From Psammoneis japonica (taxonomy: Eukaryota): DNA of 64,000 bases. The stretch covers positions 248,001 to 312,000 of the forward strand of contig QPGO01000042.1 in assembly GCA_008632985.1 (NCBI GenBank), read 5' to 3'. Positions 2,420-59,854 of the stretch are shown piece after piece. The translations under genes were made by a program, and so were the position numbers. Under the pieces are notes generated by a model, which worked only from the letters and a program-made list of their open reading frames with translations, searched no databases and was not told the origin of the DNA. The stretch's first letter is position 1. Every line of letters starts with the position of its first letter.

Positions 2420-2695
2420 CTCATTATTGTTCGAATCATCTCTTTTCCTGTTTGGGGTGTGCGCTTTGGAAGTGCCACGAAAACATATTCATTCCGCAGT
2501 TTCTTTGACAACGAGCTCGCAGACTTTGAATCATTGCCACAGGCAAACTGACGCATTGAGAAAGCTGCAGAACACGAAAACCATCACGTATCTATAATAT
2601 GAAGAAACACGGCTAAGATTCAAATAATGCAGAAAAAAAATAGACTGACTCTCTAGAGTGGTATGACTGAAGTGTCCCAAGCTTGAATCTATCGT

Positions 2696-20262: not shown

Positions 20263-20597
20263 CGTCGAAGTATTTCTGTCGACACAACAGCACTCTCCAA
20301 CTCGGGAAACTCCAAAAACAGAATGCGTTAGCGTGCGATGCGTTGGAGACCCTTCGTACGCAAAATATGTATGGAACCAACGTCGGTTTGCAACCTACGT
20401 GCACGTATAAAATAATTAATCACACCCACAAAGCTGAAAGCGTTCGACAAACCAACAACCGTACGGTAGGCGATCCAGATCGTTGTTCGTTGTGTTATTG
20501 TTGTAGCCGTGCATACTTCTTCCAGGTGGTGAAACGTCGCAGCTAGAGTTCCAAGACCAGGCAAGCAATAAGTTCGTTCATAAGCTCCTTGTGTAGT

Positions 20598-23500
20598 ATG
20601 TCTTGGTTTCGGGGAAGCGGAAACTCGTCGACGTCTTCCAACGCAAATGCAAAAGTACCGTTCAAAGATGCAATCAAAGCTCTCCACCCAGCTCCTGCAA
20701 ACATCGCACGACCTGATCGGCCACAAGATCGAAGTCGATTCTCACAGCTACTCCTCGAACATGGAGAAAAGCAGTTACAGGATTGGGCAGTGATTGCTTC
20801 CTCCAACGTGATTTCGACTCCTACTCAAACTGAAAACTCTGAAAACTCCGCTGCTGCATCTCCCAAGAAGCGTTCTAGCAATGGCGGAAAGACATTGTGG
20901 GCGCAAGCCTCGTTCTCAGGAAGCTCCTCGCGAAAGCAGAATCGATCATCGCCACCAAAGTCTCAGTCATTCGATGACTCTATAGTGGACCTCAAGGCCT
21001 TAGCTCCGTCAGCAAACATGGGGAAAATCGAAGGACGTTTGCATCTCTGCTCCAATTCTGTTGTGTTTGAACCGAACGACATTTCGAGAGCAATCGTACG
21101 TTGCCCATTTGCACGCATGGAATTTAGTCCTACTGTAACTCCTCCCGAGGAACTTTCATCCTTTGACTCTTCCTTCAAAACTCCAGTGGTCTTTCAGTGT
21201 AAGAGACACATCATTATGAAGGCGAACAATGTGATTGGGCCGTCAAGGACTGTGGAGATGCGTGTGCGGTTTAGATTCACTTTTCTACATTCGTCGCCAG
21301 ACAAGTTTATTGACTTTGCAGAAAGACTGTTCACTATGATCCAGGGAGATGGAGGTGGGCACAAAAGGTCGTTGCTAACTCCAGAGATTGAAGCGATAAT
21401 GAAGCCCATGCTGGATCGACCCTTTGACCCATCGAACCTTGTCGACGTACGCGAGCGCCCACTTACGCCAAACCTTCGATGCTCGTTACTGACACCTTTG
21501 CAATCAAAACCGGGGTGTGCTATCGTGACGAATGAAAGGATTTACTTCCAACCTGCATCAGGTGTGTTGAGTCCCACTGTTACAAAGGCAAGCAGTTGGG
21601 CCCTTGGCGAAATTTTGGCAACAGCTCGCCGTTACAACGGATTGCGTGACAGCGCCATTGAGTTTTACTGGAAAAGTGGCTCATCTATCTTGGTGGCATT
21701 TGAGAGTCAACGAGAACGTGAACAAGTGATGCGGCTCCTCCCGCTCAATGCACCTTGTTTTACTGATCGGTCCTTTATTGTCAAGGCAGAACGAGAATGG
21801 CACAATGGAAACATTTCAAACTTTGATTATCTGCTTGCGTTGAATGCTGCTGGAGGGCGATCGTTTCATGATTTATCGCGTTATCCGGTGTTTCCCTGGG
21901 TCATTGCAGACTACCAGAGCTCGTCTTTGGATATTAAGAATGAAAAGACGTTCAGAGACTTGTCAAAACCGGTTGGTGCACTCAATGAAGAAAGGTTAGA
22001 GTACTTTCGAACTCGTCTCCATGGAATGATGGACATGGAAGACCCCTTTCTTTATGGAACGCACTACTCTGCACCAGGATACGTCCTATACTATCTTGTG
22101 AGAAGCATGCCTGAGCATATGTTGTGCCTTCAGAATGGTGAGTGTCAGACAAAGTGTCAATTGGATAGATTGGGTTTAATGGAATGAATTCTCATTCAAC
22201 CTTCCCTTTCATTTACAGGTAAATTTGACGCTCCGGATCGCATGTTTCACTGCATGCAACACTGCTTTTCCTGTGTGCTTTCTAATCACGCAGACGTTAA
22301 GGAACTCATCCCTGAGTTTTACAATACGGACGGAGACTTTGACTTCCTCATCAATGCTCGGAGTTTGCAGCTTGGTGTAACTCAGAATGGGGAGCGCGTA
22401 CATGATGTCGGCTTACCGCCCTGGGCAAAGTCGCCTCGGGACTTTCTGAAGAAGAATCGTAAAGCGTTGGAGTCGGATATATGTACACAAATGCTCCCGC
22501 AATGGATTGATTTGATATTCGGATGCAAATCTCGTGGAGAAAACGCAATGGAAGCATCCAATTTGTTTCATAAGATGGCATACTTGGGTCCCGCGGATCT
22601 GGAGGCTTTGGAAAAAGACGACGATCGATATCAAGCGGAATTGCAAGCAACAGAATTCGGCATTGTCCCCGATATGCTATTTTGCGAACCTCATCCCTCC
22701 CGACAGGATGCCTTGGAGACAGATGGATTTGTGGCTCCTCTGTCTGACCGTGGAGCTCATTTGGAAATAGAAAGCGATGCTGGAAAAGGCGATCAACATG
22801 CCTGGGAATTCCTTGATCCGCCATCGCACAGCAGTGCCGAAGAGGGTAGGGCTCGGGATGTTTCTGACAATTGGAACAATGCTTCTGACCATGCATCATC
22901 CGACAGACATGCTTCGTCGTCTAAAGATGTGGTGTTTGGGCCTTCAGTACGGACATCTTTAGAGGACGACGGGTCGTTTCCAGGTAAGTTGGCGGCTACT
23001 AGCCCAGACTCTGGCGGCGAGAACCCTTTGGCTACTCCAGGGGGGAAGGCCAAGGCATCGTGGGGCTCGAATCTTTCGTCAATGAGCGACCTTGGTGATT
23101 TGGCCACTGACGAAGAAGTGAAGAGGGATTCGAATCCGCTCCGCTTGGCGGCTGAGAAAGGCGCGTCCTCTAGAAGAAAAGAAAGACAGCTACCTCTTAG
23201 AGGGAGCGGTGACGGAAGAGCTAATAGGTTTTACGAGGGCGTGAGTTGGTCCCGAAGCTTTTCTAGCACAGGTTCCAATGATGGAAATGAAGCCAATGAT
23301 GGTGTATGTAGTCCATCTACGCCGGCTGCTTCCTCAATGGGTTGGGATATGACTGTCATTGCAAGAAATTCCATGCATGGAGATTCCGTTACAGAATGTG
23401 CCTTGACTTTTGATGAAGGGAGTCCAAGCCAAGCATATCTAACAACTGTGTCACTGGATGGACGCCTTATGGTACATACTGTATCCCTAGGGCCTCCTGG

Positions 23501-24671
23501 AGGAGATTCAATCGAAAGCAAGCGACGAAGTTTCACTGGGACGCTCAGTCGGTTCGCAAACATGGGCATGAATAGAGACCAGACAGAAACAAAATTGAAT
23601 CCACATCGCAGCCACTCTGCGTCTGATCCTTTAGCGTGTTTGGCAATTACGAGCGACGACCGTGGGGGGCAGATTGTCTTTGCAGGTGGGCATGATGACT
23701 GCTTGCTTGCCTATGGTGTGAATTCGGCGTGTGCGGTGGCATCTGTTTACTCTCATCGAGACGCTGTAACCGGGTTAGATCTGATTCATCGGGCACCTTT
23801 TGGTCCAGCAAGTGCATTTTGGCCGGAGAAGGCGACGCACCTTCTGGTTTCGGGCAGCTGGGATGCAACTGTCAAAGTATGGTCCGTGGTCGTTTCGCCT
23901 GGGGAAACAGTCTCTATTAACCGAGAACCGTTGGCTGAACTATTCGACGCAGACTCTACAATTGTCTGCGTATCATCGACCCCAATACCAGGAGGTATTG
24001 CCATATGCGCAGGCTGCAATGATGGCTCATTTGTTGCCTGGATCTGTCATGATGATGGAAGTAAGTCATTCTTTATATCCGCCAGTATCAATATCTCTTT
24101 TCCCCATTCATGTTGATGTTTGCAATCCCATTACACAGTGATGGAGGTAATTTTCAAGGAATCTGCAAGAAGAGGTTCAAAACCTTGCTCAGCGGTCAGA
24201 TGGACTACGCAGAATGGCGAGACGGCCTTATTCACAGCTTTCTCGACCGGAAAGGTTGCCTCATATGTTTTGATCAATCGAGAACTGCGTTCTGTTAGCG
24301 CCGTTTCTCTTGGTGTCGCGGTAAGACTTCGATCTTGTTTTCTCAAGTGATAAACCAATTGAAGTACTCACTGGTCACTCCGTACACCTTTCCTCCACGC
24401 TTTCCTCCAGGTAACGTGCTTAAAGTATTCAGAAGGAATATTGCTTGCTGGTTGTGCTGATGGGGGTCTGCGATTGATTTCCATTGAAAGCGGTGCCCAA
24501 TTCAAGTCGAAACCGACCTTATGGAATGCGGTGAATGGAAAGTCCTCTCCGGGGTTGACTTGTATCAACGTTGCGTTTTACGATGACGCCAAGGAAGGTA
24601 TGGGTCGTTGCTTGTGCTTCACTGGAGCAGATGACGGTAGTGTTGCTCTCTTCGAGTTAAAGAAGGTGTAG
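20598..24671 (+). CDS. BEACH-domain/WD40 protein, FAN (NSMAF)-like
   Basis: GRAM/PH region, BEACH motifs (ISNFDYLLALN, GRSFHDLSRYPVFPWV, YGTHYS, GKFDAPDRMF, DVKELIPEFY, WIDLIFG) and WD40 (LLVSGSWDATVKVW). Introns about 22138-22218, 24061-24138 and 24321-24410. Confidence 0.9.
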
Positions 24672-24765: not shown

Positions 24766-25233
24766 CTAGTTTTCATCGGAAAACACCTTATCCCAAAAAC
24801 TAGGATTTCGTTCGATGACCTTCTCCTTCATCCTTGTCACCGGGCGCATTTGTCCGTCATCGTCCTGGATCCATTTGAAGTATCCTGATGACGAGGGCCC
24901 TTGATAGTCCTCCGTCGGATCGGGGGTATTGCGATTCTGCTTTCGGTTCTTGTCAGTCGCTCCGTAAAAGTTGGATTTCCTCTTTCCATAAAACGCGCTG
25001 CCGGCCCCTAGGCGTCTAGAGGTCGCATCGTCCACGAAGGCATCAAGCTCTTCGAAGAAACCACCAAAGAATCCCTTCTTGGCAGGTTCTGGCTCTTCCT
25101 GCCTCGCAAGCCGAATCAAAGTGGCAGAGCTCAGAGCTGGGGGAGCAACATGTGAAGTAGTGAACGCCACGTTCTCGAGCGCTAGCGACGAGATAGCCAC
25201 AATCGCAGCAACAAAACAGACACTTGATTTCAT
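24766..25233 (-). CDS. Hypothetical protein with signal peptide + AF motif (likely plastid)
   Basis: 155-aa ORF with N-terminus MKSSVCFVAAIVAISSLALENVA-FT and ELDAFVDDATSRRLGAG core. Confidence 0.7.
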   Translation of the reverse strand: MKSSVCFVAAIVAISSLALENVAFTTSHVAPPALSSATLIRLARQEEPEPAKKGFFGGFFEELDAFVDDATSRRLGAGSAFYGKRKSNFYGATDKNRKQNRNTPDPTEDYQGPSSSGYFKWIQDDDGQMRPVTRMKEKVIERNPSFWDKVFSDEN

Positions 25234-25507
25234 TTCTTTCTCGCTTGCAGTGAATGGATTATGCTTCGTTTATGCATGCTAGAGAGTCGAGATGGCAGAA
25301 CAAACATGACCAAGAATCGTGAGCTAGAGCAATGAGCAACGATGAGCAATGCCCGCCAGGTCAGCAGGTCGTCAGGACGACTCCTCCTCGTCGGCACCCG
25401 TGAGCCTCTGTGCGCGCGCTTCTCGCATGTCAGAAGTTTTTTGCTCGACTGACTCCTCGCCTGTTCACCTGCTGTGTCTGCCCCGCCCTCCGCCCTGGCC
25501 TACAGCG

Positions 25508-25964
25508 ACTGGCGTCGCTTTGCTCGTACGACTTCTTGCGGTGATCTAATTCTAGAGACAGGTAATTAGGAGGGATGGGAGGACTTTACTAGCTTAGTTG
25601 GTCCCTTTCCATTCCCAAGCTGGAACGGTGTGGCCAGAGGGAGGGAGAGGTGGGAGCGCTTTTGGACTGTCCACTCGGCTTGCTGCCAAAGCTCTTCGGA
25701 AGAATGAGCAACAGCAGCTTGCTTCCAAATGCCAACTTGGACGCATTCAATGGTGGCAGTGCGGGGGGTGACTTCCAGGTGCGTCATTAACGGGCAATGA
25801 GGTCATCTCCCCTTGTCGGTCTTTACGAGGCCAACCACTGGGGTCGCTTTGCTCGCGCGACTTCTTGCGGTGATCTGATTCTAGAGACAGGCAATTGGCA
25901 GGGATGGGAGGACTTTGCTGGCACAGTTGGTCCCTTTCCATTTCCAAGCTGGAACGGCATGGCC
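25508..25964. repeat. Direct repeat A, 128 bp x2 (25508-25635 and 25837-25964)
   Basis: Ungapped alignment by eye, 14 mismatches. Confidence 0.95.
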
Positions 25965-26540
25965 GTTCTGGCACCACCCACACACACTGGTGTGGGCAGT
26001 GGCGGTGCAATTGGGTGGGTGGGTGGGCCTGGCTGGAAGGCTGAGGCGCGGCCTGTGATGGAATCACGGGTCGGCGGGAGCAAGTGGCACATCGGCATTT
26101 GGGTGTGGGACACATTGGCCACCAGCCAACATGCGGCTTGCGAAATTGCGCATGACGGGTTCTGCTTGCAGGCGGAGGTGACGGATCATTTCGTCGGAGC
26201 GCCATCGGCCCAAGAGGCGGATCACGTCGGTGTCAACATGGGCACATGGGAGGGCCATGGCACCAGCCACGCGCAAACAGCGAGCAGAGACATCGGCAGG
26301 TGTGAAACCCAGCGCAGCGGGGCCAATTGCCAGAATTGCGGCACGCAGGATGCTGGCAACATCGGCGGGAGAGACACGGCGCCAGGTGTTGTTGTGCAAG
26401 CACACGCCCCTGAGCAACAGCAGCTTGCTTCCAAATGCCAACTTGGACATGTTCAATGGTGGCATTGCGGGGGGTGACTTCCAGGTGCATCATTGATGGG
26501 TGATGAGGTCATCTCCCCCTTGTCGGTCTTTGCGAGGCCA
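25705..26540. repeat. Direct repeat B, about 130 bp x2 (25705-25833 and 26411-26540)
   Basis: Alignment by eye. Both copies translate as HLEVTPR.ATIE(C/H)VQVGIWKQAAVA. Confidence 0.95.
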
Positions 26541-26699
26541 GTGAACAGCTTGAGGAGCAGGCCTCAGCGAGCGAGCAAAGTCCTTTTTTCTTTTTGCTCT
26601 TGCCACATCCATGATCCATGACACCCAGTGCCAGTTGCCAGCGAACATCGCCATTGTCGCCATTCCTTGCATTCTTTGTCACAATGGATGACACAACAG

Positions 26700-29600
26700 C
26701 AACAACATTGAAGGCCACCACTGCTGGTTGACATTGTTCCCCACCAACCCCACCCCTGCTGCTCTCATCTGACACAGCAGTGGTGCTGCTGGAGCTGCTG
26801 ACCAAGAGTGCACACACTTGATTGAACACCTTGACAATGAACTCAAACATCAAAAATTGTCCTCTCTTCACTGTGCCAGAGAGCATCATCAAGAGAGGAA
26901 AATGCAGGGAGAAGGTCGAGAGAGTCCAAGACTGTCTTCTGGATCAGACCGGCCATTTGTTTGACATGCTCAACAATGAGCTGAACCAAGCAGAGGTGGC
27001 TGCAGACGATGAGGAGCTCAAGAGAGCTCACAGCCATTGTGAAAATGTGCACATTTGCACATCATTGACTGGCACAGAAAAGCCATCTCAATTGGTGGGT
27101 CAAGGTCGCAAAGCATGACTCTCTGAAAGGTGGCATCAGAAGGAGAAGAAAAGAGTTCAAAATGATCTGAAATGTGTTCTCATGCTTCTTCCCACAGCAT
27201 GGATTGACAAGCTTGCCCAAAAAGCTTGCTTCATCAAAGAAAACCATGCATGCTCATTGGCGCTCTGCGTGCCACAGCAGCTCTTCATTGAAAAGTTTTG
27301 CAATGAACTTGAGCAGGTCCAGACCACACAGCATTCAGAGGAGTGTCAGAAGGTGGCCACATGAAGTTGGGGTCATTGTTGAGAAGTGTGCAGTTGCTTG
27401 TCCAACCACTGGCTCAACAACAAGGAACTCGAGGTTGAGGGTGCCAACAAGGCTGCAATCAAGAGAAGCCAAGACTGTCATGAAACAGCATGCACTGAGC
27501 AACACATTTGCACAGACAGCAGAGAATGCACACTGGCCATGTGACTCCAACACAGAAAAGAAAATGGCAGTTCTTGACAGAGCTCGGAAGCTTCCAGAGT
27601 GCCACAAATCAGATCATCACCAGCCCAGACAGAGTGCCAGAAACAGCTGTGAGCACAGCACCTGCATTGTCAGCAGCAGCATCACACTGAACATGAAGGA
27701 GCCATGGCAGATTCTCCCCATGTGTGTTGACCCTTTCTCAGGCAGTGGTGCAAGCCGCCCACATTGCAGCACTGTTCTCATGTCCACTCATTAAAAAGCA
27801 GTTCTTCCTGATCTCACTCTTCTCACTTTTTGTCTCACACTCACATTTGGGAGGTGTGTTGTGTTGCTGCTCCTCCGCCAACATGCAATGAGACAGGAGG
27901 AGGAGATCTGTCCTGCTTCAACACAGCTCACCATTGCAAGTTTTAACATGAGTTTCAGAGTCAAGAAAGTGGTGCCACCAACATTGCTGGTGGCATGAAC
28001 CCCAGTGGGCCTCCCCCCAACACTGCACAGAGCAGCTCATCAGACATCTGTTTGGCCCCAGCACAACTCAATGGGGTCAAGCAACCTTTCAATGCTGCAC
28101 TCAGCATGCAGATTGCAAATGCCAAAGCAAGGCAGTTGTGACAATGCTGATTGCAGCCAAGGCAGCCATGGTGATGTGAATTCTCAAGGATGCAAAGCTG
28201 ATGACAGTGTCAACCTGGGAAAGCAGTTTGAGTCTGCCTTGGACTCAGTCATGACTCAATTGTCATTCAGTTGCCAAGTGTGAGATTGACACACAAGACA
28301 CATCAACATTTTGCTTTTTTTTTGGCTTCTGCCAGCAAATGTGACTTTCATCACAAATGCCCACTCACTTTGGTGATGTTTCCCCACAAATTCCAACCTC
28401 TGACAGCACTGTGGCACCCATTGTGAGTGCAGAGAGCATCTCTTGACAGGCTGTTTTGTCCAATTTGGTGTGCATTGGTGCCAAGCTTCTCACCAAGTTC
28501 ATTGTTGTAGATGTTTTCTCTCTCAACCCAGGAAAAATGACTGATTTCAAATTGCCCATCCTGTCCCAATGTTGCCAAAGTGACTGTCAAACCATTGATC
28601 TGGCAATCCTCAAACAAACAGCTGGTGGGTGGGACAGTCCAAGCAGTCACCAACAAACCACCACCTCTGACAAAGGCCAAACAATGCAGAAATCACTCAC
28701 AGCCCATGCTGGCACTTGCTTTGGAGGTTGAATGCTGGGTGACAGCTGCAAGCAGACAAGCAACTGTCATGCTTGCCATCTCCCAGCCAAGAGGCTTTTG
28801 ATTTGACCAAGCACTCTCTCCCCCAAGGTTGGCAAGCTTCTGTGATGACCTTTGCATTCAACAGTGAACTTGAGATTTCAAATGGTCCTCTCTGTGAGTT
28901 GGGCAAGGATTGCTTCATCATGGCTGCTCAAGATCTGGTCAAGGCTCATGACCAAGAGATGTTTTGTCTTGTCAAGCAAGCAATGGGCAAGGTTGTCTGC
29001 ATTTTTGTCATCTCCATGAGTTTTCCATTGCCAATCTGCTGGCAGGATGAGTGCAAGGCTTGCATGGTGGCAGCTGACACTTCAGCCTGTGCAACAGCAT
29101 TGAGCTTGATGACACTGGACTTTCTCAGCTTCTGATTCTGTCTAAAGTCATGAACACCTTTTGCAAGAAAATCAAAGTCAAGTCCAACCATTTGAAAAAC
29201 TGCAAAGATCACACCCTGGTTTGGCATTGTTCATGATGGCCCTTGCCACCATGCACTGCCAGTGCTCTTGTGGATGTGTTGAGAGTGCTGAGAAGAGTCT
29301 GGAAGATGTTGCTTTGTGCACTTGCCCAGTCAATGACTGTGTGAATTTTGCTGGCTGAAGCTCTCTGAATTGTCAAAATTGCACAGACAGACTGTGCGCT
29401 GTTGGTCAAAATGGGTTCCAAGATTTTGCACAAGGTCTTTGTGAGACATCATCTGAACACTTCAATTGCCCTCTCTGCATGACAAGCTGGACAAGGCAAA
29501 AGTGATGGAGCACAACTGTTGACTCTCAAGGACCCAGCTGAAATCAAGTCAGACAGTGAGTGCAATGATGACAAGGCCAGTTCAATCAGCATCAACGAAG

Positions 29601-30000
29601 ACTTGCACTCTTGTCTAAAAAATGTTCTCACTCTTGTTCAGAGTTGAACTGTGCTTGACAAGAACTCTGTGTTTTAGACAATGCCTTGTCAATTGTGGTT
29701 AAAGGACCATTCATGATTGGCATGACCAGCAAAGCAGGAAACAATGCTTGATGAAATTTGATCTTGCAGTGCATGTCATCTTGACAAGATGATGATCTTT
29801 GCATGCATTGAGAATGAGGACATCAACATGCAATTAAAATGATTGGTGAAGTGGGAAATGACCATGAACAAAACTTGTGACTTGCAAGTGTTCGTTCTTG
29901 ACAACAGCGCACCTGCAACAAATTTTCATGGCTCATGTCAGACAATGATTGCATTCATTTGTCTCATTGGCTTGCTTTTACATTGGCTGTGTGCTGCTTG
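26700..30000 (+). pseudogene. Decayed coding sequence(s) of unknown family inside the hypermutated block
   Basis: Protein-like + strand frames broken by TGA and frameshifts, Tyr-free and Cys/His-rich. No family recognised. Confidence 0.35.
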
Positions 30001-30399
30001 CAATCTGATTCACACACGTGACAATTTTCTTTTTTTTGCATTAAATCTTCTTTGCTTTCTGTTTCCTGCTCTTTCCTCTTTGATTTGTTGGCTCTTCTTC
30101 TGTCAATGCTCCTGTCATCGTTTGCTGTCTGTGCACAATGTCATCTTTTGGTGGCTGTGCTTGCGAGGCATTTTTCTCCACTGCCGGTGCCCTTGGATTG
30201 GCCACAGCTTTGCGTGCAAGAAGTGAAGAACATTGTGTGACAGATCTGAGTTTTTGCATGTGTTTTGTTTTGACTCAGCTTTGCACACATGTGGCTCATG
30301 CTCACCTTTGTGTTGCCCCTGCAGTGCCATCTTCCCTTTGTGCTGAACTTGCATGTCAGCATGTGTGAGCATCAAGATTGGCAAAAGCATCAGCAGTTT

Positions 30400-33300
30400 G
30401 CAATGTTGCCCAAGCTGCCTGCTGCACTCACCTCTCTCTCTCTCTCTCTCTCTCTCTTGCCTTGTCTTGCATCTTTTTTCCTTCAATTGTGCCAGCCCTC
30501 TGCTCTGCATTTTCCTTCCCTCACTGCTGTCATTGTCCGGATGTTGGGCAAGTCCTGTGTTTTGTGTTCTTTTGTGAGGTGATTGCGATGTTTTTTGTGG
30601 CCAAGATGCCAGATCTGCTTGAAGCATCCCAAAGCATTGCACCCTTCATGCTCTTGACCCAAACAAGTTGTCTCCCATGCATGGCTCTTGCAGAAACCAA
30701 CATCAAAAGCTCTGCCCCCATTTGCTGACCCACATCTTGGACAAGCTGAGGTGTGTAGAATCTTCCATCTCTCCATGTTCCTGTCAATGGATGCAAACCC
30801 AGTTGCCCATTTAGGTTGCCAAAGTTTCCCAAAGGTTGGCGCTCTTTGCACAGCTTTGCCAAGCACCTCCCAATCAACGGGGGGGTGTGCTGGTTTGCAT
30901 CCCAGCTTTTGTCCAGTGTTGTGCAGCCGGGGGCCCACAGATGTGCTCAATCATCTGGTTGTGGTCCCAATTTGCTTGTGCTTCACCATGCAGATGTGTG
31001 CGCCATTGTTGTTGTTCCGGCATTTTGCAGCATCTGAACTCTGGTTCTGTGTGAAGTGCTTCCCAATGCACCTTTGCAAGGAGGTCCATTTCCACATTCA
31101 GTTGTTCCATTGGGGTGAGTTCCTGAAGCGGCACTTCCTTGTCTTTGTGGCCATCCACCTCCTCTGGCACCACAAGTGCAGGCAGAGTTTTGATTGTTCT
31201 GTGAATGGGTTGAATCAAGTCATGGTTCCATTGTTTTGGATCATCAAAGTTGTTGTAGAAGCATGTCCGCAGACCATCATCACAATCACAGCCCACAACT
31301 GCCTTGCCTTTCCTGATGTTGCACCATTCGCAGAGGTCCACCAAATGTTGCAGCACTCCACAGATCCCGCCTGGCTCTGCCCCATGTGCAGTCATTTCTT
31401 GTTTCTTTCCTGGTGCCTGATTCACTCCACGATGTCGATGTGAGTGTCCCAGGGACAAGAGGAGTGTCATTGCCACTGTTGCCATGTCATCTTTAAAGGA
31501 GCTGTCGGTTGCACACACTGCGGTTCCTTCTTCAATGCCTTGGATGAGAGCTTCCAGTGGTGGCACCTGATTGCATGGGAAAAACCACTGCCAAAAGACT
31601 GGCTCCATTTCGGTCAATGAAAGAACTGTTGCTGTCCCTGTTTGTAGGATGCAGTTGTCCGATCCAATTGTTTTTGTTGGGAGAGTGCCATGTGGCATGT
31701 TCTGTGTGGTGCTTGTGAAGTGGCAGCAATGTTGTCATCTCCTGTGTGCTTGTGGAAGGATGGAGCACACTCTGTGCTTGCCTCCAGTCATCCATTGATG
31801 CACCCCATCTTCCCATGCTGAGCATCTCCAGGTGAGCTTGCTTGTGTCTGAGATCCATTTTCCCAGAGGTCAACACAATCCAAGGTTTTTCACATTCCTG
31901 CCTGGTGACAGACAGCACATTGTCAGGGCTTCCTGCCACAATCACCAACAATTGGCCAATGGGAACCCTGCTTTTGGCCAATCACACTCACTTTCACACT
32001 CAGATGCTCCAGTCCAGCAGTCCTGCAGAATGCGTTGCCCATCTCCTGATGCAATGTCCAAGAGTTGGAGTGCCTTGATCCACGTTCTGCATGGGTTGAT
32101 CTTCCTGAGTCATTCGCCTTTGTGTCCGTGATCCACAAAGGCAGCCATCAGGAATGAATCTCACTCCTGCTGTCATGATGGGCTTGGGTCTGGTGAGACA
32201 AGCTCCATTTTGCAGTTTCTTGCAGAATTTCCACAGTGACTTGACCTGCATTTTAGCAGCCAGTGGAGCCAGTTTTTTGCAGTCTGATTGTGCACTTGGT
32301 GTGACACTCCCAACTCAAGTTGCAGCAATTCCTGAATTGCTGCAAGTTCACATCCTGTCATGGAGAGCGAGTCCCCTTCCTGCAAGCACACCTCCAATTT
32401 CAGCAGTCCTTGTAGCACACAGATCTCTGGAGCTCCCAATCCATTGCACTTCCTTGGTGCGAAGAGCACTTTCCTTGGGGATGATCTGGGACATCCCAGT
32501 GCCGGGAGAGCTGCTCCAAACAGCGGTTTCTGTGTTGAGTCACAGTCTTTCTTTGTCAGCAAGCATGCTGCCAGTGGGTGCTTTGTGCTTTGTGTCACTC
32601 CTCATTAGAAAGACAGCCATGATTCTGTCCTGTTCAAGTGTCTGCTCTGGACTTGGTCCACCCATTCTTCCACTTTTGCTCCGAGAGCTGCCAGTTGTTG
32701 TTCCGCAGTGCCGTCCAAAGCCACCCACACTCCCAGTGTTTCTTCTGCTTCCCATGCCTCTAGTTTTCTAATGATTGAGCACTTTCCTTTGTGGTCCAGG
32801 ACAGACACATTTCCCAGCGTTTCTGTGGCAGACTGGTGATGCCAACAATTGTTTTCCCACTTGAATGACACCAGATGCCAATGACTTTTTGATGTCACCA
32901 GTGCTCTGCCTGTGGCGCTGATGCCTCCTTCCCAGCAATCTGTCATTTGCTGCATTCCCTGGATGACCATGTTGGAACAGATGTGTCTTGCTCCCTCGGT
33001 GAGTGTGGCAGGTCTGTGTTGTCAACGAATGTGCAGCAGATGCAGTGAAAAGTGTTCTTGGTTGTTGGGGTCTCAGCAAGGATGCTGCACCCTTCCTCCT
33101 TCAACATGTTTGTTGCCGGAATGCTGGCTGGCAGCCAAATTGCCAGAACTGCCCCATGTCCTTGAAACTTTCCTTGGAGGGGCACTTCCAGAGTGCCGCA
33201 CGATTCTTCTGAATCTCCACAGGTGGTGTGCACATGGTGTGTGATTTGGCTCAACGTTGCCACTGTCACAAAGAGGTCATTGTCATCTTCTTTGTCACAC

Positions 33301-36300
33301 ATGCGCCTCACACACAGCAGGGTGACCAAGTGCAGAATTCTGTCATGCACAATTTGGCATCTGCACTGCAAACAGCTCCAGATTGGTGCAGTTGCTGAGA
33401 CATGTCTCCTGTCAAGACCTCATTTAGAGCACAGATGATTGCCCGGTGTCGTTTCCTGCTGCCGCATGCCTCCCACAGCATTTCCTGGTAGACCTCTGCC
33501 TGATGCACTGTTGCTCTTCTGCAGTGCTTGTTCATTTTGTTGTGTTGTGTCAAAGAGGATGATGATCCTGAGTTCATTGACGTGCGATGACTCCTGTTTC
33601 TTTGGGATCATCACGTCTGCCACCTTGAACCAGCATTTTGGTGTGCATCCCTGTTTCCCTGGAACAGCAGACATGCAAGCATCAAATTCTGCTGCCATTG
33701 GATGTTGACATCCTGCCTTGCAATTGGAGAAGGCTGGTCCAAAGGGGTTGCTGGACATGTGTCCTTTCATCTTTTTCCAGCTGTGGATGTGCTCCTCCAT
33801 GGAGTGTCTGCATCCAGGCGTGGAAGAGGCGGATCCGGAAATTTAGGTTGTTTGATGAATTTTGCTGTCCCCACTCTTCTGCACCTGGCAGTGGAACATG
33901 CATTCCTTGCAACACTTGTTTGGCAGCCAGTGCATCTGCCAGATGTGGAAGTTGTCTGGCAAGGGTGACTTCATGAATGGCACTGTGCTCCCAGGAGCAA
34001 AGGTCTGGCTGCATCGATTGCCACCTTCTTTTGTGCATGCCTTCTCAACTCCTTGTTTGGGAGAACACTCTTTGTCTGGTCCTTGCCTGTCGGGCCCAGT
34101 GATGGTTCTCATTGCATGACGAGCTTTCCCGGTGACTGTTCTGATTTGTCTGCAAATCTTCTTTTGCCAACATGCATGGCCAATAGCTTCTCCTCATGCT
34201 CCACAGTTGTTTTGTTCCTCTCCACCTCTTTGCACATCTAGAATGAAACTCATTTTGATGCAGCTTTCAATCCATTTGCTTGAGTCTCCTGTGCTCCTTC
34301 ACAGCAGCCTTGTGTTGAGCCTTGATTCCTTCTGCTGGGATTTGGAAGGCATCCATCCATCCTGCACATTTCATCTGTCATCAAATCGTCCTTGCTGATG
34401 CTCTTTGCCTGAAACAGAATCTGCAGATCAGTCTCCACAGGTGTGTCACCTCCCTTGCCTTGTTGATCTTGTTGGAAGATTCTGCTGAGTTCATGAACAA
34501 CTTCCTGCATTTTTCCTTTGCTGTCTGCCGCATCTTTCTGTTCTCCTTGAATGTGATTTTGCACTGGAAGCTGTTCTTCCAGACCAAACTCATCGCAGTT
34601 CTCCAGTGCTGTCACTCTGCTCAACAAGTTGCAAGAGAGTGACATCTTACACACAATGTCATTGCATTTCTTCACCACCTTCAGCTCATTCAATTTGCCT
34701 GTCAATCTGGTTTCATGGTTGCCAAAAGTGAGGTGTGCATCCAAAAAGACTGGATTTTCTGATGTTGATCCATGGCAGTCTGTGATCAGCTGTACAATCC
34801 ACCTCTCCAAAACCTGTCATCTCACCTCATTGAACCTCTGAACTGGTGAAATGAAGTTCTGTCTGTTGGGATTTTGGATCTGTTTTTGTCACAGGTTGCC
34901 ACCATGGACAGTTTCAGATGGAGGATGCTTGGAGCATTGATCAGGTGCAGTGATCTCATCCAGGACAGCATGTCCATGTTCCGAGTGTTTTCATTCATGT
35001 CAATTCCCAGCACTGTCAGATCTCCTTGTTCCTGCCATTGTCTTATCTGGCTGTTCAAGTCTTCAAGGAATGCTTTTCTTGGATCTCTCAGATCTTGTTT
35101 TGATGGCAAGCACACTGAGTGTTGGCTGTAGAATGTGCCTGGGTGGCCTGTCCTGTCTTGCACTGGGCGGCAGGCTGTTGTCATCCCAGTGTGGATGCCA
35201 TCCTTTCCTTTGAATCTCGCCCACATCCACCTCCCCAAGCCTGTGTCATCTTTTCCTTTTGACACAAGGTGATGGCTAGTGTGTGTTGAATGAAGTGTCC
35301 TGCTCCTCTGCATTGTCTCCTTCCAGACATTGAGTGGTGATTGTTTGCGGCCACCAATTTGTGCGCCAGTCATAGTTGGCACCATTGATCATTCCACTGT
35401 TGGTTTTTTGGTGTCCTCTTGAAGTCAAGGTGCTTCAATGATGCCAATGACGTTGACCTTGCTCTTTGTCATCCATTGTTTGAGCTTGTTGTGCTTGTTG
35501 CATCTGGTCTTTTCCACAGGCAGCCCTCCAACATTGTGGAAGGCAAAATGGCAGGTGCTCTGCACTTTCACTTCCAATGAGTCTCCCCACTGTGTTTGTT
35601 GGTTTGTCGGCCAAATTTTCCGTTTTTACATCCTCCTTGGATGATCACCGACGGGATCATTGAGGATGCTTTGCTTTGGGGATCCTGTCCAGCCCCTTCA
35701 ACCCGGGAGCTGGTAGAGTCATTTGCCGCTTGATTGTTTGTTTCATCCATTGGTGTGGCGGACTTGATGAGAGATCTGCAACACCCAGTCTCTCATGCAG
35801 TTTTGCAAGCTCTACTTCTGCTCTTGCCAGTTTGTCTCTGGTTGACAGGGTGGCAGCAAGAGATTTGTTGTCTTGGTCCCTCTTGTCAGTTGTGCCACCC
35901 ACTTGCCCCAATCCTTGAAACACAACAGACTTGGTCACCTTGTGATTGGGAATGCGTTGCATTGTCATCTTCATTTCTTGCAATGCCAACTGAGCTGATG
36001 TCATCATTGTTTTCAAGACATTGGACTGCTTGTTCCATGGCTGTCTTGTCCTCTTTCTTCTTTGGTGGTTTGGCTGGCTTCAACAATTCTCGTTTTTGGT
36101 GTGCTTCCTGCTGAGTGCTTTTGTTGGACTGCCAATTGTCCTCCATGCCCCACGGATTGTCATCGATGATCTTGAGAAGTTTTTCATTTTCCTTGGAGGG
36201 CATGGTTCCTGTCAAGGGGTCGCATTGGTGATGCTGGCAGATGGCTGTGCCACTGGCCTTGAACCAGGATGCTGCGTTGGGTCCGAGGTTGCACAATGCT

Positions 36301-37850
36301 TTGGGAATCAGATTGTTGATCGTCTTCATTGCTTTGGCGAACACCTTCCTTGGGAATGTGATTACATGTTCCAACAGTTGGATCCATTTTTGGTCCACAT
36401 GATGAAAGAGTGGGATCATTTTGGCCTTCTTCTTGTCTGCCGTGGGATCCAGAATGCATTTCCTCATGAGGCAGTGCCAAAGATTGATTTCTCATCCTTG
36501 ACGATCTTTGACAACAGAGTCCAAATCCCTGAAGAATGTGAGTTCCACTTGACCTGGCACTTGTTCCATGAAGTGGTGCTGGCATTGTGCAAGTTCTGAC
36601 ATGTTCTTTTTGACGTCATCTGGGGCATGCCGAAGGGCCTGAGAGGAGCAGCATGGTGCAAAGCGCAAGGTCAGACCTAAGACTTTCTTTCTGGCTCCAA
36701 CTCTCCACAGTTTCTCTGCTGCAGTCCTGGCTGTGTGGGCATGATGGACTTCTGCATCAATGTGAATGGCCATGGGGTTCTTCTTTGGATTGTCTCTGTC
36801 AAATTTTGGTCTTTTCCCATCAGTTCCACAGATTGTCCTCCATTGAAGTCCCACAAGAGTCAGGTCTTTGATGCCCAAATGGTGACAAATCAGGTGGTGT
36901 GGAGCGTTCGTTCCATCATTGTTTTTGAGCTGCAGCAGAGCCACCCGACACATTCAGAGCAAGCAGCCTGGCAAGGAACCCTGTTCCTTGCCACCAAGAA
37001 CTTCCCCACCTCTGTTTCTTCCATTGTGCCACAGAGTTTTGTTCCAAAGTCATCCAGCTCACATTTTGGTCGTCCCTCTGCAGTGAAGTGGATTGAGCTC
37101 AGCAAGTTGTGTGCTCTTGATTTGCTCGAGGGTCACAATGACCTGCTCCCAGAAATGCACTGAAAAGCTCTCAATCTTGAGCTTTGTTTTCCAGAATGTC
37201 TTCTGGGGATCTCCAAACTCCGTGTGTCTCTTCCAGGTCTGGATCCCATGTTCCAATGCAGACATTGTCTCTGAGAATGCTCTGAACAATGTCAAAAGCT
37301 TGAGCCAGCACTTTCAATGTCTCCTTGAATGATTTGGCTGTTGTTGGGGTAACAAGCCATGCATTGCATCTGATGGCCCATGTTTCTACCTCCTCTTTGT
37401 CATCCTCTCCTTTGGATTCTGCCATTGCTGAAAGAGTCTTGGCAATTCTGGCTTGCAAGGTTTTCCACAGGATCTTCTTCTGGATTTCTGGTGTCTTCTT
37501 TGTCTTCTGTGGTTTCCTCCTCATCTGATTCATCAGATTTTTTGCTGCCCTTTTGCTGTTTTCATCTTCTTGTTCCTTCTCTTGCTTGACTTGATCTGGT
37601 TGGATGGCAGTGTCCTTGACAAATCCTTTGTCAAAGGCGTTGTTGCAGTTGTGTTCTTCTGCTTCCTCACCTGATCCTCCTTTGTGATCTCAAGTTCTTT
37701 TGGAGGTTCTTCCTTTCTTTGTTCTCATTCCTGTTGCACGTGTTGTGTTCATGGGGTGTGATGACTTTCTCCCCTGTTTCCTTGGTGCGTGTTTTTTGCA
37801 TGGAATTAGCACTGGAGTTCATTGGCGCCAACAATGATTGGTTGTCCTCA
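30400..37850 (-). mobile_element. Degenerate non-LTR retrotransposon, Ambal-like (ORF1 + APE/RT/RNase H ORF2)
   Basis: ORF1 remnants about 35.65-37.6 kb (LQWRTI..AIHID..GLTLRFAP; LFHHVD). ORF2: APE (WGD..FHNVGGL, DDTGLGRW, DPRKAFLEDL..GIDMNE), RT (QGKFQGHGA..IW, FVDNTDL, WEGGISATGRALV.SKSHW, ETLGVW), RNase H (ATDSSFK, AE.GGI, GCD, VDGHKD..LNVEMDLLAK), and CPRC. Ends approximate. Confidence 0.85.
30432..30457. repeat. (CT)n microsatellite near the 3' end of the LINE
   Basis: About 13 CT units seen directly. Confidence 0.9.
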
Positions 37851-37999
37851 TCGTCAGTCTTGTTGGATCATTCAATCAATTGATTTGCTTGGCCATCTTG
37901 TCCTTTAACTTTTTTCTTGTTCACACCCTTGCAAGGAGAGCCATGATTCTTCCTGCCAGAGGCAAGGCATTTCTTTCCCCCACCATGGTGCAATTTTTT

Positions 38000-40900
38000 T
38001 AGCTGTCAGTTTTTTTGTGTGTGCGTGTTGTGCTGCCTTCATCAAACCTCCTCCTGCATTCAAGCATTGGTCTGGCTCTCGAGACTGGGTTGTCTTTGAA
38101 TGACAACTGTCAAAACTCACCATGCCAAAGAAGAAGAAGAAGAAGCAGCACTCCAAGAGTCAGAAGGAAAACACTTGTCTGGACAGTGACAACAGACAAC
38201 CGGTTTTGCTCTGTTCCGAGCATAAAAAGGCTGCAGAGCAGTTTTGCCAAGGGCTTGCAGCTGTGATTTTGCCAGTCACATTGGGAGCAAACGTTTGTGA
38301 TTTGGTCAGGGCCATCGATTCCTTGACTGCAGCATCCAGCAAAACAACCCAGGTCTCTCCCAGTCTTCTCCGCATGCTCCGCTCTGTGATTCGCATTCAA
38401 CAACAAGTCTCCACAACATGCAATCAACAGGGAGAGGCAACAAAGGTCATGAATGCTTTGTCCAGGTCTTGCAATTTTGCCATCAGTGGCTCCAACTTCT
38501 TGTCATCAAACAAGAGGCTCCAGCAGCAAACACAGGCGGTGGAGATCACAGGAGTTGTCTGACAATTGGTTTGCAGCTCTCTCTGAAGCAGAGGATGCAC
38601 ATGCCCAAGATGAGAGCAACAGGGTTTCTGACTTGCCTCTGGACAAGATTGAACGTCCTGAGGAGCCAGAGCATGATTGTTGCCAAATCAAAGAGGACCG
38701 TGTTGATGGCTTGGACAGCTTTCTTGCTTGCACATTTTTGGATGCCATGAACACTCTCATGGGCAAGGTTTCGGGTGCGCTCGACAATCTCAAGAGTCGT
38801 TGTTGACAACAATCACATGCCAGCAATGGTCTTACATTTGAGCTGATCAAATGTGCTGTGGTCGCAAATGCTGCCATGCAGGAGCTTCGACATGCCAAAC
38901 AAATGATGATTGCCAAATGGCCTCATCTCAATGCCATCTTTTGGATCCCAGCGGAAGCATTGTTTCCTGACATTGTCAACAAACTTGTGGACAAGATAAA
39001 AGGCAACGACTGGTCAAAGTGAGCAACAGCAACAAGCATCGTTGAGGACAGCATGCACTTGCATTCATTCAGGATGGAAAAAGATCACAAGGAATTGTCC
39101 AGCAAATTGAGATGCTTTGAAAAGAAATGGAGTGCAACTGGTGTGAGCGTTGAATTTGCATGTGAACTTGTGGGTTCCTTCTGCTTGTTTGCGCTTGGCC
39201 ACACAAATCAAAAGCTGCTTGAAAAGGCAAACAGCTCATGGTTTGCAGTGAAAGAACTTGATGAGAATGGAGAATGTGTTCCGGCAAAAATTGAGCCTCA
39301 TTTTCTCCTTTCAAAATGTCATTTTCTTGCAGGCGATTGATCTCTTTGGTTTGCAATTGACTGTCTGGAATGGTTTGAAGAACACAGAGCCATTGTCTCC
39401 TCAGAGCCTGGCCTGAAGGATTGTCATTTGCCAGAATTCACAACAAAACATCCATGACCCTGCACAATCGGTCATGTCCTTGCACAATTTCATGACGTTC
39501 ACACAAGGGGTGGAAGCAGCCCTTTTGCGGCATGGCGGAATCCCTTTCTTGTGGACCTCAGTGACATGTTGATGGATGCCACAAATGCAAGAGTGGCAAG
39601 TCACCCCACCTCTCTGTCCCTGGTGCTCATTGTGCATTCCATCCAGATGGCAATGACATGCCTTGAAGGAGACAACAATTCATTTAGATTGTCTGCCATG
39701 GCCAAGGTACGTCACAAAAATGAGGTGCCAACTGTGACAGCATGTGTTTTTAATTGCGTTGCTGCTTTCTTGATGTTCTCGCACAAGTGGGTTTCTTTTG
39801 CAAAATCTGTCCAAGAGTTCTCCCATTCTTGTGAGTGTCCCAACTTGTTTGTCAGTGACATGAAGGACAAAGTGCAAACAGTCCCTTGCGCACAAAAAAT
39901 TCATTCTTGGAAGAAAAATGGCTTTCAGCTGGGATTCCTGGCAGTGGCAATGTTGCCTTTTGGAATCCTTGTGTGGCAGGAATGATGTCACAGGAACACT
40001 GTGACGTGACCTTGCGTCAAGGACACGATTTCCTTGACAACTTTGGCCAGATCAGGGCCATGCTTCATTTGGCACATGCGCTGTAAGAGCATGGCACAGA
40101 ACTCAAAAGACACGAGCCAGTTGGTTTTCTGGAAAATCTTCATGGGAAGGCAAAGTCAATCTGGGCTGTCAGTTCCTTGCTGAAGCAACCCAGTTTGCAA
40201 CTCACTGTTGGCTGGCAAAAGGAATCAAGCCAGATGTTGTGAGTGACCTTTCTCAGAGATCAGCTGTCTGTTTGGATGAAAGGTTGTCAATGGAGTGTTG
40301 CAGGCACATCCATCATGTCGCCTGGGTGCAAGACAAGCTCGAGGAGAAGAGCATCTCACGTCTTTTTGCTGGATGCATTCAAGAGAAATGAACAAGCTTG
40401 AAAGAAGAGTTGGCAGTGTGATGGACATCTGCCACAGCCACAAAGCACTTGAAGGTTCTTTTGGAAGTGGAGTTTCAGGATCTTGTGGATTGGAGGATTG
40501 GCCAGCCATGTTTTGCTGCCAGGTTGCTGAAATCCTGTTGTGCCTTGACAATGAAAAAGAACTTCTCTCTGCCAACCTCTTGTCTTTTGGACTGGACCTC
40601 TCTGACTTTTATCGGACACTTTTTGAAAAGACAGACATCAGTCTTGTTGTTGCAGATGGACATTTCAAGCTGTGGGAAGCTGAATGCTCTGCAGCATTGT
40701 TTCTTGCATCCTTGGACATTGCAGAATCAGTGGACAACAGCGACTTTGTGAGGAAAGTTGTCAAAAGTGGGCGAAGTGTTCAACACTTCCTTTGGCAACA
40801 AGAGCTTGTCAAAGCACACTTTCTTGATTTGACAAAATGGCATCAAACTGTCTTTCTCAGGTTTCTTCAAGTCTTTGGTTTGGCAGCTCTAAATTCTGAC

Positions 40901-43900: not shown

Positions 43901-44600
43901 TGTGGCCTGCAGGTGAGCTGAGAGGCAGCAGCAGCACTTTTGCGGTTGAAGAGTGGGGCTGTGTTGCAGTCATCAGCACATTCTCAAAGCACAGCAGCTG
44001 CAAAGGAAAGGCATGTGCTGACATCAGGAGCAACAGATGTGCAAAGATTGAGCATTTTGATGATGGAGCTGTTGTTTGTGCACCAGGGTTTTGCCCACGG
44101 CAAGCTTGCAGCACAAGAGTGGGTGCCTCAAAGTTGCTGTGCATTGGCTCACCTGGAATGTCATGATCTTCTGCAGGGTTTGAATGGCCACTGATGGTCT
44201 TGAAAAAGGCATGTGCATCTTCAAATGAGTGTGGCAAAGAGTGAGAGCTGCAGTGCACAACATGCTCCCATTGCACCCACTCCAGCCAAGTGTGTCTCCC
44301 CACACTTTGTGGGCCAAGTTTGCGTCAATGTTGTTTGATGCCACCCATTGCCAACAGGGCACCTGACACCCTGCTTGCATGCAACATGATGTTGAGCATT
44401 TGTCACTTGACAGTGTTTGTCTGCAGCAACACCCACACTGCAAACTCTCATGGGCTCAATGTCATTTTCAAGCTTTTGGGGCTGGACACATGAAAAAGAT
44501 TTTTTGCCAAATCTTGAGCCGCTCCAGAGCAGAGCCAAAGCACTGTGCCAATGCATTTCTCACCTTCCTGAACTCTCATTGCTCTCCTTCTGTTCAGGCA
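38000..44600 (+). pseudogene. Long decayed + strand coding region(s) of unknown family; possible tyrosine-recombinase-like C-terminus near 41.3-41.45 kb
   Basis: Chains of protein-like ORF fragments, and HDAVRKIGTNML..(frameshift)..ALAQHNQRAAFLHH resembles YR box II spacing. Confidence 0.3.
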
Positions 44601-45055
44601 GCTGGGGGGGGGGGGGGGGCAACATTTGTGGCTTGCTTGAGCAGGGCTTTGTCTGCCATCTGACAAAACCAAGCATGTGCTTTTGCCCACAGTGCGAGCC
44701 ACAGTGCTTGTTCAGCAGCACCCACTTGCTCTCATTGAGACACTGTGGCTGAGTCGGGTCTGACTCATCGGGGGCATCTCGTGGCCCAGCAGGCTTTGGG
44801 CACGCAACTGTCAAAGTGTGGTCCATGGCTGGTCGGGATCGTGCTGGAGGTGGCAGGGACGGACCAAAGTACAAAATTGCTAAAAGTAAAGAAACATCGC
44901 ACAGACAGACCGCCATTGCGATTTTTTGTGCTGATGTCGGCCCAAATTCTTAGCACTAGCTGGGCACGTACTTTTCTACGCTGGTACTCCTACCTACAAA
45001 GCTTTGAATAATAATCGCTGTGTCGCGCGCGCTCGGCCATGCATACCCAACATGA

Positions 45056-58954: not shown

Positions 58955-59290
58955 GTGGGCAGCCTTAGCGACCGGAAATAGTGATGGCCTTATCGGTATC
59001 GAGGAGTTTGTTGGTCATAGCTTGGAAAGCCCCACGCAAGTCCATTTGGGTCTTTCCGAAAACCAGAGCATCTTCTTCCTCGAAGGTAATCTTACTGGCA
59101 ATCACATGATGCTCTCTGCGGTTTTCACCCCCATTGCGGGTGCGAGGCGTGGGCGCTGTTGACAACCGCTCCGTCATGTTTCATTTGTTTCCAAAGCAAT
59201 CCACAGTCGCGTTTGGATCACTGCTTGCTACTCTAGAGCTAAAAGCTTTGGCTTGCTTTTTGCAATTTGGCTTGTTGCTTGATGATTTCT

Positions 59291-59668
59291 TCTTGCCAGA
59301 AGGCGATTCGGCCAGAAAATCGACTGAAATCGATGAAAATTCTGGCTAAAGTGCGATTTTGAAATTTTACGGCAAAAGCCAGTGGATATTCTTGCCAGAA
59401 GGCGATTCGGCGAGAATTTCCGACTGAAATCGAGGGAAATTCTGGCCAAAGTGCGATTTGGAAATTTTTACCGCAGAAGCCGGTGGATATTCTTGCCAGA
59501 AGGCGATTCGGCGAGAATTTCCGACTGAAATCGATGGAAATTCTTGCCAAAGTGCGATTTGGAAATTTTTACCGCAGAAGCCGGTGGATATTCTTGCCAG
59601 AAGACGATTCGGCGAGAATTTCCGACTGAAATCGAAGGGAATTCTGGCTAAAGTGCGATTTGGAAATT
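59291..59668. repeat. Tandem repeat, about 101-bp unit, about 3.8 copies
   Basis: Units begin tcttgccagaag at 59291, 59390, 59491 and 59592. Confidence 0.95.
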
Positions 59669-59854
59669 CTTGGCCTTTGCGCGCGCTGCCGCTTCAGAGG
59701 GGAGTGAGGTGGTCGATCAAGCCATGCATGCAATCCTGTGCAATGTGCAATCCACATCATCTCGTTCTCTCTGAAGCACTTTGGGACATTGCAAATCGGC
59801 AGTGCGAGTTGAGAAGTCAGTTCATTTCATTCTTTTTGAGGAGCAGGAGCGAGT

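Follow-up and report, generated by a model that had tools for sequence, protein, structure and literature searches.

Positions 25508–26540 of the 64,000-nt stretch of the Psammoneis japonica genome analysed here (contig QPGO01000042.1; hereafter, the window) most probably represent two non-autonomous, Crypton-like copies of a tyrosine recombinase (YR) element, caught up in a local hypermutation of mobile and foreign DNA that turns TpA into TpG or CpA; we put the probability of this reading at about three in four. Both copies would lie on the left margin of 18 kb of old, degraded mobile sequence. In the mobile or foreign DNA of this genome, the palindromic TpA would be converted to TpG or CpA, i.e. 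by an A:T>G:C transition on either strand, and in the old domains CpG would also have been lost to TpG and CpA. The shorter of the two copies would be affected only in part, its left end still carrying 8 TpA. The outcome would be missense rather than nonsense: tyrosine codons would become His or Cys, the leucine codon CTA would become Pro, and TAA and TAG would nearly vanish, whereas the codon for the recombinase nucleophile would be an unavoidable target.

The window is eukaryotic and carries a BEACH/WD40 gene (20547–24671) and a protein kinase gene (57584–59014). The observed/expected ratio (o/e) in its host DNA is 0.47–0.58 for TpA, 0.92–1.03 for CpG and ~1.0–1.2 for TG and CA. Three domains are depleted of both TpA and CpG (coordinates of domains, blocks and repeats are unstranded throughout), namely, domain 1 (26617–44740; TpA o/e 0.04, with 54 TpA in 18,124 nt, CpG 0.17, TG 1.70, CA 1.86), domain 2 (52900–57390; TpA 0.05, CpG 0.12, TG 2.00, CA 1.83) and domain 3 (63000–64000, running off the window; 0 TpA, o/e 0.00, CpG 0.30, TG 2.00, CA 1.62). 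G+C content is nearly equal in host DNA and domains (0.47–0.48). The depletion is confined within sharp edges (~26617–26660, 44740–44870, 52890 and 57400), outside which lie host genes with normal TpA and CpG. The block with both element copies (25466–26616) adjoins domain 1 on the left and is distinct from it, being TA-poor (TpA o/e 0.24; 12 TpA, nine of them in or beside the left end of the short copy) and still fairly CpG-rich (CpG o/e 0.65; TG 1.27, CA 1.73); the drop in CpG starts only at ~26660. The longest TA-free run spans 1910 nt, from 25882 to 27792.

The depletion reshapes the coding potential of the domains. The tyrosine triplets TAT and TAC fall 28-fold, from 21.8 per 1000 trinucleotides in host DNA to 0.8 in the domains, and TAA plus TAG fall 8-fold, because of which the domains are crowded with long overlapping ORFs (3.15 per kb, vs 1.92 in host DNA). 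When 84 stop-to-stop ORFs of ≥110 aa from the depleted parts were searched against Pfam, none scored above the curated cut-off inside the domains and only the host kinase did so. Domain 1 includes the remnant of a retroelement, an RNase H-like ORF on the minus strand (30877–31734) whose one homologue, P0151, is 46% identical to it.

To place the two copies within their family, contigs of the one sample that contains the stretch were aligned to positions 25200–26800 at ≥80% likeness. In total, 258 contigs of the family align; as they come from runs of a single sample, probably the one from which the window itself derives, these other copies are not independent, and joint states at neighbouring sites are given as bounds from depths. 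Run X2 contributed 2 aligned contigs and run X3 none, and positions 26442–26495 are covered by no contig. Contig depth is ~58 in the single-copy flanks, 300–1000 over the YR part and 1600–3100 over two repeats, A and B, and the 69 nt that separate them in the short copy. The short copy consists of repeat A1 (25508–25635, its left-end segment), the 69-nt middle (25636–25704), which is part of the repeated family (depth 1638, vs ~58 for single-copy DNA), and repeat B1 (25705–25833, its right-end segment, with 2 TpA left). The long copy consists of A2 (25837–25964, left-end segment, 1 TpA left), the YR remnant (26073–26396, minus strand) and B2 (26411–26540, right-end segment, with no TpA and 3 CpG).

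A1, the 69 nt and B1 are spanned by other contigs, so that the short form is itself a member of the family, and it is the most abundant one. Loose contig ends at 25833 and 25837 mark the points where other copies run into unrelated flanks; the junction between B1 and A2 is private to this locus, and A and B are thus the ends of the element, and part of the divergence between the two copies may predate insertion. What the preliminary description took for internal duplications is, therefore, better read as two adjacent copies, [A1-69 nt-B1][A2-YR remnant-B2], of a multi-copy Crypton-like family, to judge from the aligned contigs. No third copy of A or B was found elsewhere in the 64-kb window by BLAST or repeat search, and a 22-letter pattern taken from repeat A had 0 matches in a metagenome scan. 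Positions 25465 and 26617 are joined in one contig, whose shorter side has only 28 letters, and the contig across the right junction of the block has half the depth (29 vs 58), a weak hint that the 1151-nt block may be missing from another haplotype.

Repeats A and B are unrelated by inversion, and the element has neither terminal inverted nor long direct repeats. Cryptons, as described by Kojima and Jurka (2011; PMC3212892), likewise have no terminal inverted repeats, and their non-autonomous derivatives retain both ends and are more numerous than the coding form. The family studied here resembles the Cryptons so described in that a YR is probably the sole enzyme, terminal inverted and long direct repeats are lacking and deletion derivatives with both ends are commoner than the coding form. 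We also considered a DIRS/Ngaro-type YR retroelement with split direct repeats (A1-[ORFs with reverse transcriptase]-B1A2-B2) and rejected it: no reverse transcriptase was found alongside the family, only 69 nt separate A1 from B1, and the B end and A start abut unrelated flanks elsewhere.

The remnant in the long copy covers ~106 of ~380 residues and is the C-terminal part of the recombinase. It has 1186 homologues at E ≤ 1e-3, and a profile built from 21 full-length relatives matches the window at 26396–26073 (profile positions 263–368 of 379; E = 8e-47), where no TpA is left. The full-length homologues are proteins of ~380 aa without any other Pfam domain; no Pfam family matches the YR protein, and a sequence-profile search of the PDB gave only chance matches (E = 0.27 or worse). 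An AlphaFold model of the homologue P0001 (mean pLDDT 82), however, matches Cre recombinase chains (E = 1.7e-6, TM 0.54–0.68), and the predicted structure identifies the family as tyrosine recombinases with a Cre-like two-domain fold, in agreement with the label 'YR element' given from the letters alone. In the window copy, the stretch SARxLRxxGA...GRWxS still has its conserved R, R and W. Given a His at the position of the nucleophile and the loss of all but ~106 residues, this copy is a dead remnant. A Tyr-free homologue, P0009, was followed up in a metagenome scan, which returned three loci of 35–39% identity, none of them TA-free.

The direction of change can be read from the codons of this remnant. 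The catalytic tyrosine codon (26180–26178, minus strand) reads CAC (His) in the window, with Tyr at that position in 144 of 150 homologues; the codon at 26249–26247 reads CCA (Pro), with Leu in 134 of 150 homologues; and that at 26108–26106 also reads CCA (Pro), with Leu in 82 of 143. The other genomic copies tell the same story at the nucleotide level. Of a depth of 720, A accounts for 466 at 26180, and C has a depth of 272 at 26179; the difference implies that TAC (Tyr) is present in other copies at a depth of at least 194, some others having TGC or CGC. The TA letter is held by 65% of the other-copy depth at 26180, by 93% at 26107 and 60% at 26248 (in both cases giving CTA, Leu, where the window has CCA), by 87% at 25983, 82% at 26169 and 54% at 26211, and in the middle of the short copy by 12 of 12 contigs at 25664, where the window reads TG (25663–64). 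A second, unrelated coding remnant behaves in the same way: opposite the six Tyr of P0151, the RNase H-like ORF has F, H, H, Y, F and C, so that three of the six face His, His and Cys. A Cys codon (TGT, 26114–26112) in the YR remnant was considered as a former Tyr and rejected, nine contigs having TTT (Phe) there, which makes the change a transversion.

The TpA losses private to the long copy are evenly split on the plus strand, three to TG (26107, 26180 and 26248) and three to CA (25983, 26169 and 26211). Its other private changes comprise two CpG transitions (26030 and 26286), two or three A>G changes outside TpA (26171, 26173 and possibly 25857), one other C>T (25943) and five transversions (25842, 26100, 26113, 26137 and 26186). 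The change at 26173 turns His CAC into Arg CGC against 15 of 15 contigs. The preliminary description had argued for a real, strand-symmetric process of TA>TG/CA change and had proposed other genomic copies as the means of polarizing it. The process is borne out by the Tyr and Leu codons, the TA of other copies and the even split between the two products; the comparison with other copies gave a divided answer, TA being held at seven TG/CA sites of the window, whereas at the sites in repeat A no departure from TG or CA is among the differences listed. The direction from TA to TG or CA thus holds wherever it can be polarized independently. Under a directional mutation process, the state of the majority of copies need not be the ancestral one.

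The preliminary description also maintained that the repeats record the direction of mutation directly, which is true of them only in part: three sites in repeat B agree, whereas repeat A provides no polarity and the site at 25744/45 was most likely CGCG. B1 and B2 are 91.5% identical over 130 columns, with 10 substitutions and a single 1-base indel between them. The strings singled out at first sight (acGCAtt/acATGtt, ggCAat/ggTGat, ttaa/ttga at 25789 and ttac/ttgc at 25825) are all present, and the three CpG transitions mentioned with them lie at 25743, 25783 and 25791. Ancestral TA is supported by other copies at three of these sites. At 25788/89, B1 has TA, B2 has TG and 14 of 14 other contigs have CA; TA alone lies one step from both other states. 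At 25795/96 (CA in B1, TG in B2), the other copies have T at a depth of 753 and G at 492 of 978, so that TA must account for a depth of 262 or more. At 25825, the differences listed include none from the TA of B1.

Ancestral TA is contradicted, by contrast, at 25744/45. Translation of the minus strand does give IECVQ for B1 and IEHVQ for B2, from which an ancestral IEYVQ had been deduced. At 25745, however, G is found in five contigs (388 of 441 depth units), with no change at 25744 among those listed; ACGCGTT is thus the most likely ancestral string, with the codon CGC (Arg) in the same frame, in which case B1 and B2 would each have changed by an ordinary CpG transition (Arg>Cys and Arg>His, respectively). 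Nor does that frame show detectable YR homology: tblastn with 21 long homologues against all frames of B1 and B2 gave nothing significant, B2 having YR homology in no reading frame, and when the profile was run against the three minus frames, the only match was at 26396–26073, with none in repeat B. The inferred tyrosine therefore fails. More generally, CA-versus-TG pairs between two copies are ambiguous, as an ancestral CG fits them equally well as TA, which is a methodological trap for any comparison of this kind.

Repeat A is where a different reading has its best footing. A1 and A2 align without gaps and differ at 14 of 128 positions (89% identity, by repeat search and BLAST). The formal alignment reproduces the counts that first drew attention to the locus: A1 has 8 TpA and A2 has 1, the common site being tcTAga, and the seven TpA of A1 absent from A2 correspond to TG (four), CA (two) and CG (one). 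The 16 positions that make up the TpA of A1 carry eight of the 14 differences (binomial p = 9e-5), and private TpA sites number seven in A1 and none in A2 (sign test p = 0.016). It also holds, as had been stated, that none of the six CpGs of A1 shows a C>T or G>A change, five being kept in A2 and the sixth (25513) having gone through a C>G transversion. At a further site (25629/30), A1 has TG, A2 has CA and one contig of run X2 has CG. The eight to 10 contigs that align to A2 differ from it, among the differences listed (40 of 109), only at the private positions 25842, 25857 and 25943, which implies that other copies, minor variants perhaps aside, have the TG and CA states of A2 at the seven sites. 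Taken by itself, the alignment of repeat A thus gives no polarity, and the direction is not recorded directly there.

The pattern could then be turned around: the A end would already have been TA-free, and A1, the outer copy, would have gained TpA by C>T and G>A changes at CpA and TpG like those that repeat-induced point mutation (RIP) inflicts on a nearby duplicate in fungi. Each A1/A2 transition at these sites can equally be written as a CpA>TpA change, the copies aligned to A2 show, among those differences listed, no departure from its TG/CA states, and the 8 TpA of A1 are crowded into 69 nt (25527–25595), next to TA-free stretches of 176 and 192 nt, which gives a TpA o/e of 1.08 over A1 against 0.58 in host DNA. 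By majority rule or simple parsimony, repeat A does show what the preliminary description had said would overturn it, namely, TG/CA in outgroup copies. We do not accept this as a refutation, for four reasons. A mutated master copy amplified later under a directional process would yield the same pattern. The 5' part of A1 is also covered by other contigs (depth 164–224, vs 58 for single-copy DNA) with no difference from A1 among those listed, so that TA-bearing versions probably exist at other loci. The short copy itself shows the reverse change at 25664. Finally, TpA o/e nowhere exceeds 0.78 in 1-kb stretches of the window, none of which is thus enriched in TA. Moreover, RIP normally affects both copies of a duplicate, and A2 shows no matching C>T load; every independently polarized site is a TA loss. 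A RIP-like origin of the TpA in A1, which would concern repeat A only, therefore seems to us improbable.

Under the preferred reading, that of TpA loss in mobile DNA, the loss of CpG is a separate and slower event. In the long copy, a single TpA remains whereas most CpG have been kept, which makes the loss of TA the faster process; the block is TA-poor (0.24) at a CpG o/e of 0.65 and the old domains are poor in both, which makes the two losses separable. In the domains, too, the loss of TA is more complete than that of CpG. The latter resembles the decay of 5-methylcytosine in silenced transposons: the old domains combine a CpG o/e of 0.12–0.30 with an excess of TG and CA, and plain CpG transitions are found at 25743, 25745, 25783, 25791, 26030 and 26286. 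Deamination of 5-methylcytosine, however, cannot remove TpA.

The few TpA that survive in the three domains (n = 70) are not a random sample of contexts. Relative to host DNA, their density is 0.008 for RTAY, 0.071 for the mixed contexts (RTAR or YTAY) and 0.21 for YTAR (chi-square p = 2.5e-11), with host context frequencies standing in for the original ones of the elements. This suggests that A followed by a pyrimidine (TAY) was lost soonest. The natural target of TadA is the A of the UAC anticodon step, and the resemblance of the TAY bias to this target may be taken as a lead, not a test. A broader scenario can be built on it, in which silenced domains would be purged first of TpA and later of CpG, with the TAY preference of TadA/ADAT-type deaminases; the abundant, near-identical and almost TA-free short elements would be escape variants, and the recombinase could not escape, its nucleophile codon containing TpA. 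We regard this scenario as speculative and, taken as a whole, rather unlikely.

The closest known parallel is Bigelowiella natans. In two viral regions integrated into its genome, mutation-accumulation lines yielded 231 mutations, of which 230 were A>G or T>C, all on TpA; genome-wide, there are 124 clusters that are poor in TpA, rich in CpA+TpG and enriched for domains of transposons (Mettrop et al., bioRxiv 2026, 10.64898/2026.01.13.699255). The two systems share the A:T>G:C change at TpA, giving TpG or CpA by strand and confined to foreign or mobile DNA, and the TpA-poor, CpA+TpG-rich clusters as its long-term residue. They differ in that the evidence here is comparative whereas there the mutations were measured; in that the target here is a YR transposon family together with a retroelement remnant, and there NCLDV and virophage DNA; and in that the depletion here is far deeper (TpA o/e 0.04, vs 0.45 in the NCLDV region there). 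The domains described here are also CpG-poor, whereas the main text of the preprint mentions neither CpG (0 occurrences) nor tyrosine recombinases or DIRS elements. As to the restriction to TpA, six of the polarized A>G or T>C transitions in the long copy lie at TpA, and 26171, 26173 and possibly 25857 lie outside it. A targeted DNA adenine deaminase is proposed in the preprint, with an ADAT2-like enzyme as the candidate (10.64898/2026.01.13.699255); by analogy, the chemistry in P. japonica may likewise be deamination of adenine to inosine in DNA by a targeted TadA/ADAT2-like enzyme, and we infer that some form of recognition marks out the domains.

The parallel with fungal RIP is more formal. 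Both processes produce dinucleotide-specific, strand-symmetric transitions that permanently inactivate repeated or mobile DNA in sharp-edged domains. However, in RIP, C>T changes turn CpA into TpA and G+C falls, whereas here TpA is destroyed by A>G, no stops are created and G+C is unchanged; in place of the TpA excess and lower G+C of the fungal signature, we find a TpA o/e of 0.04 in the domain and a G+C of 0.48 in both host DNA and domain 1.

Adenine could also have been deaminated in RNA rather than DNA, if ADAR-type A-to-I editing acted on double-stranded element RNA that was then reverse transcribed, the DNA never being mutated in place. ADAR prefers adenines with a U on their 5' side (Mettrop et al., 2026, 10.64898/2026.01.13.699255), and a retroelement remnant does lie within domain 1. 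Nevertheless, the family in question appears to encode only a YR-type enzyme, with no reverse transcriptase found with it, and whole sharp-edged domains are depleted rather than single elements; in B. natans, according to the same preprint, the changes arose in place in a single-copy, transcriptionally silent insert. We consider this route very improbable. Least credible of all is the absence of any special TA process, with a native foreign composition or selection against TpA and repeat differences due to drift and CpG decay: although CpG decay alone accounts for the CA-versus-TG pairs at 25744/45 and 25629/30, and two related YR loci from other sources (L002 and L003) are only CpG-poor, with a TpA o/e of 0.44–0.57, this view is already contradicted by the codon evidence, since the TpA o/e of 0.04 goes together with the disappearance of conserved Tyr and Leu codons from two coding remnants that are unrelated to each other. 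The seven-to-zero asymmetry of TA sites in repeat A and the TA that other copies still hold at the same sites also speak against it.

A mutator that acts by A>G on the TpA of foreign DNA is already known by experiment, from a single 2026 preprint built on one mutation-accumulation study (10.64898/2026.01.13.699255). In our search of the literature for TA>TG/CA hypermutation of transposons, no other reports were found, the results consisting of papers on fungal RIP and that preprint only. Absent from its main text are the joint depletion of CpG, the faster loss of TA than of CpG and the TAY bias. Against this background, the window adds an independent, natural record of the process in transposons, anchored on the catalytic tyrosine of a recombinase. 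It displays the end state, with TpA down to 4% of expectation, and establishes a link to CpG, which the same domains lose more slowly, while the surviving TpA sites hint at a TAY preference. Collectively, these features offer testable handles on the enzyme and on the choice of its targets.

Three sharp-edged domains of the window (26617-44740, 52900-57390 and 63000-64000) are depleted of two dinucleotides at once, with TpA at an observed/expected ratio of 0.00-0.05 and CpG at 0.12-0.30, whereas TG/CA is raised to 1.6-2.0 and G+C content remains about that of the host DNA outside them. The block of two adjacent Crypton-like tyrosine recombinase (YR) element copies beside the first domain (25466-26616) still has a CpG ratio of 0.65, although it is TA-poor; therefore, TpA sites seem to be lost more rapidly than CpG sites.

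The survival of TpA within the three domains, where 70 sites are left, varies with the flanking bases (chi-square p = 2.5e-11). Relative to host DNA, the surviving density is lowest in the RTAY context (0.008), intermediate in mixed contexts (0.071) and highest in YTAR (0.21), which suggests that the preferred target is an A followed by a pyrimidine. Changes private to the window among the genomic copies, A>G or T>C, are also found outside TpA, at 26171 and 26173 and possibly at 25857. The change at 26173 converts a His codon (CAC) into Arg (CGC) and creates a new CpG; the His is conserved in 120 of the best 150 of the 1186 homologues and in 15 of 15 contigs assembled from sequencing runs.

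The motif CTAGAGAGT occurs four times in the window, against 0.26 expected, a count reached in none of 100 shuffles. The four occurrences are at 2648 (minus strand), 25279, 52592 and 57415. Three of them are no more than ~300 nt away from an edge of one of the domains or of the block, and the sequences flanking the four show no alignment past the motif.

Several other features of the window were recorded. Between the left-end repeat of the short element copy (25508-25635) and the start of a secreted-protein ORF (24766-25269, minus strand) lies a CpG-dense, TA-free stretch of 176 nt (25326-25500), the right part of which is repeated in the genome (depth 91-164 versus 58). At 25249, the window carries A (gcAgt) where one contig from each of two runs (depths 57.7 and 5.7) carries G, a CpG/CpA difference between the sample's reads and the window. 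A tandem array in host DNA (59290-59671; period ~100 nt, 3-4 copies, 88%-93% identity) coincides with a local dip of the TpA ratio to 0.24.

Among the best 150 of the 1186 YR homologues, one protein of 213 aa (P0009) contains no Tyr and has His at the nucleophile position, and another of 283 aa (P0080) retains a single Tyr and has Cys there; thus, public protein sets also contain Tyr-purged YR copies. Two distant YR relatives on other public contigs (L002 and L003) are CpG-poor (0.12-0.21) yet retain TpA (0.44-0.57). Accordingly, TA purging is not a general property of the YR element family to which the block belongs.
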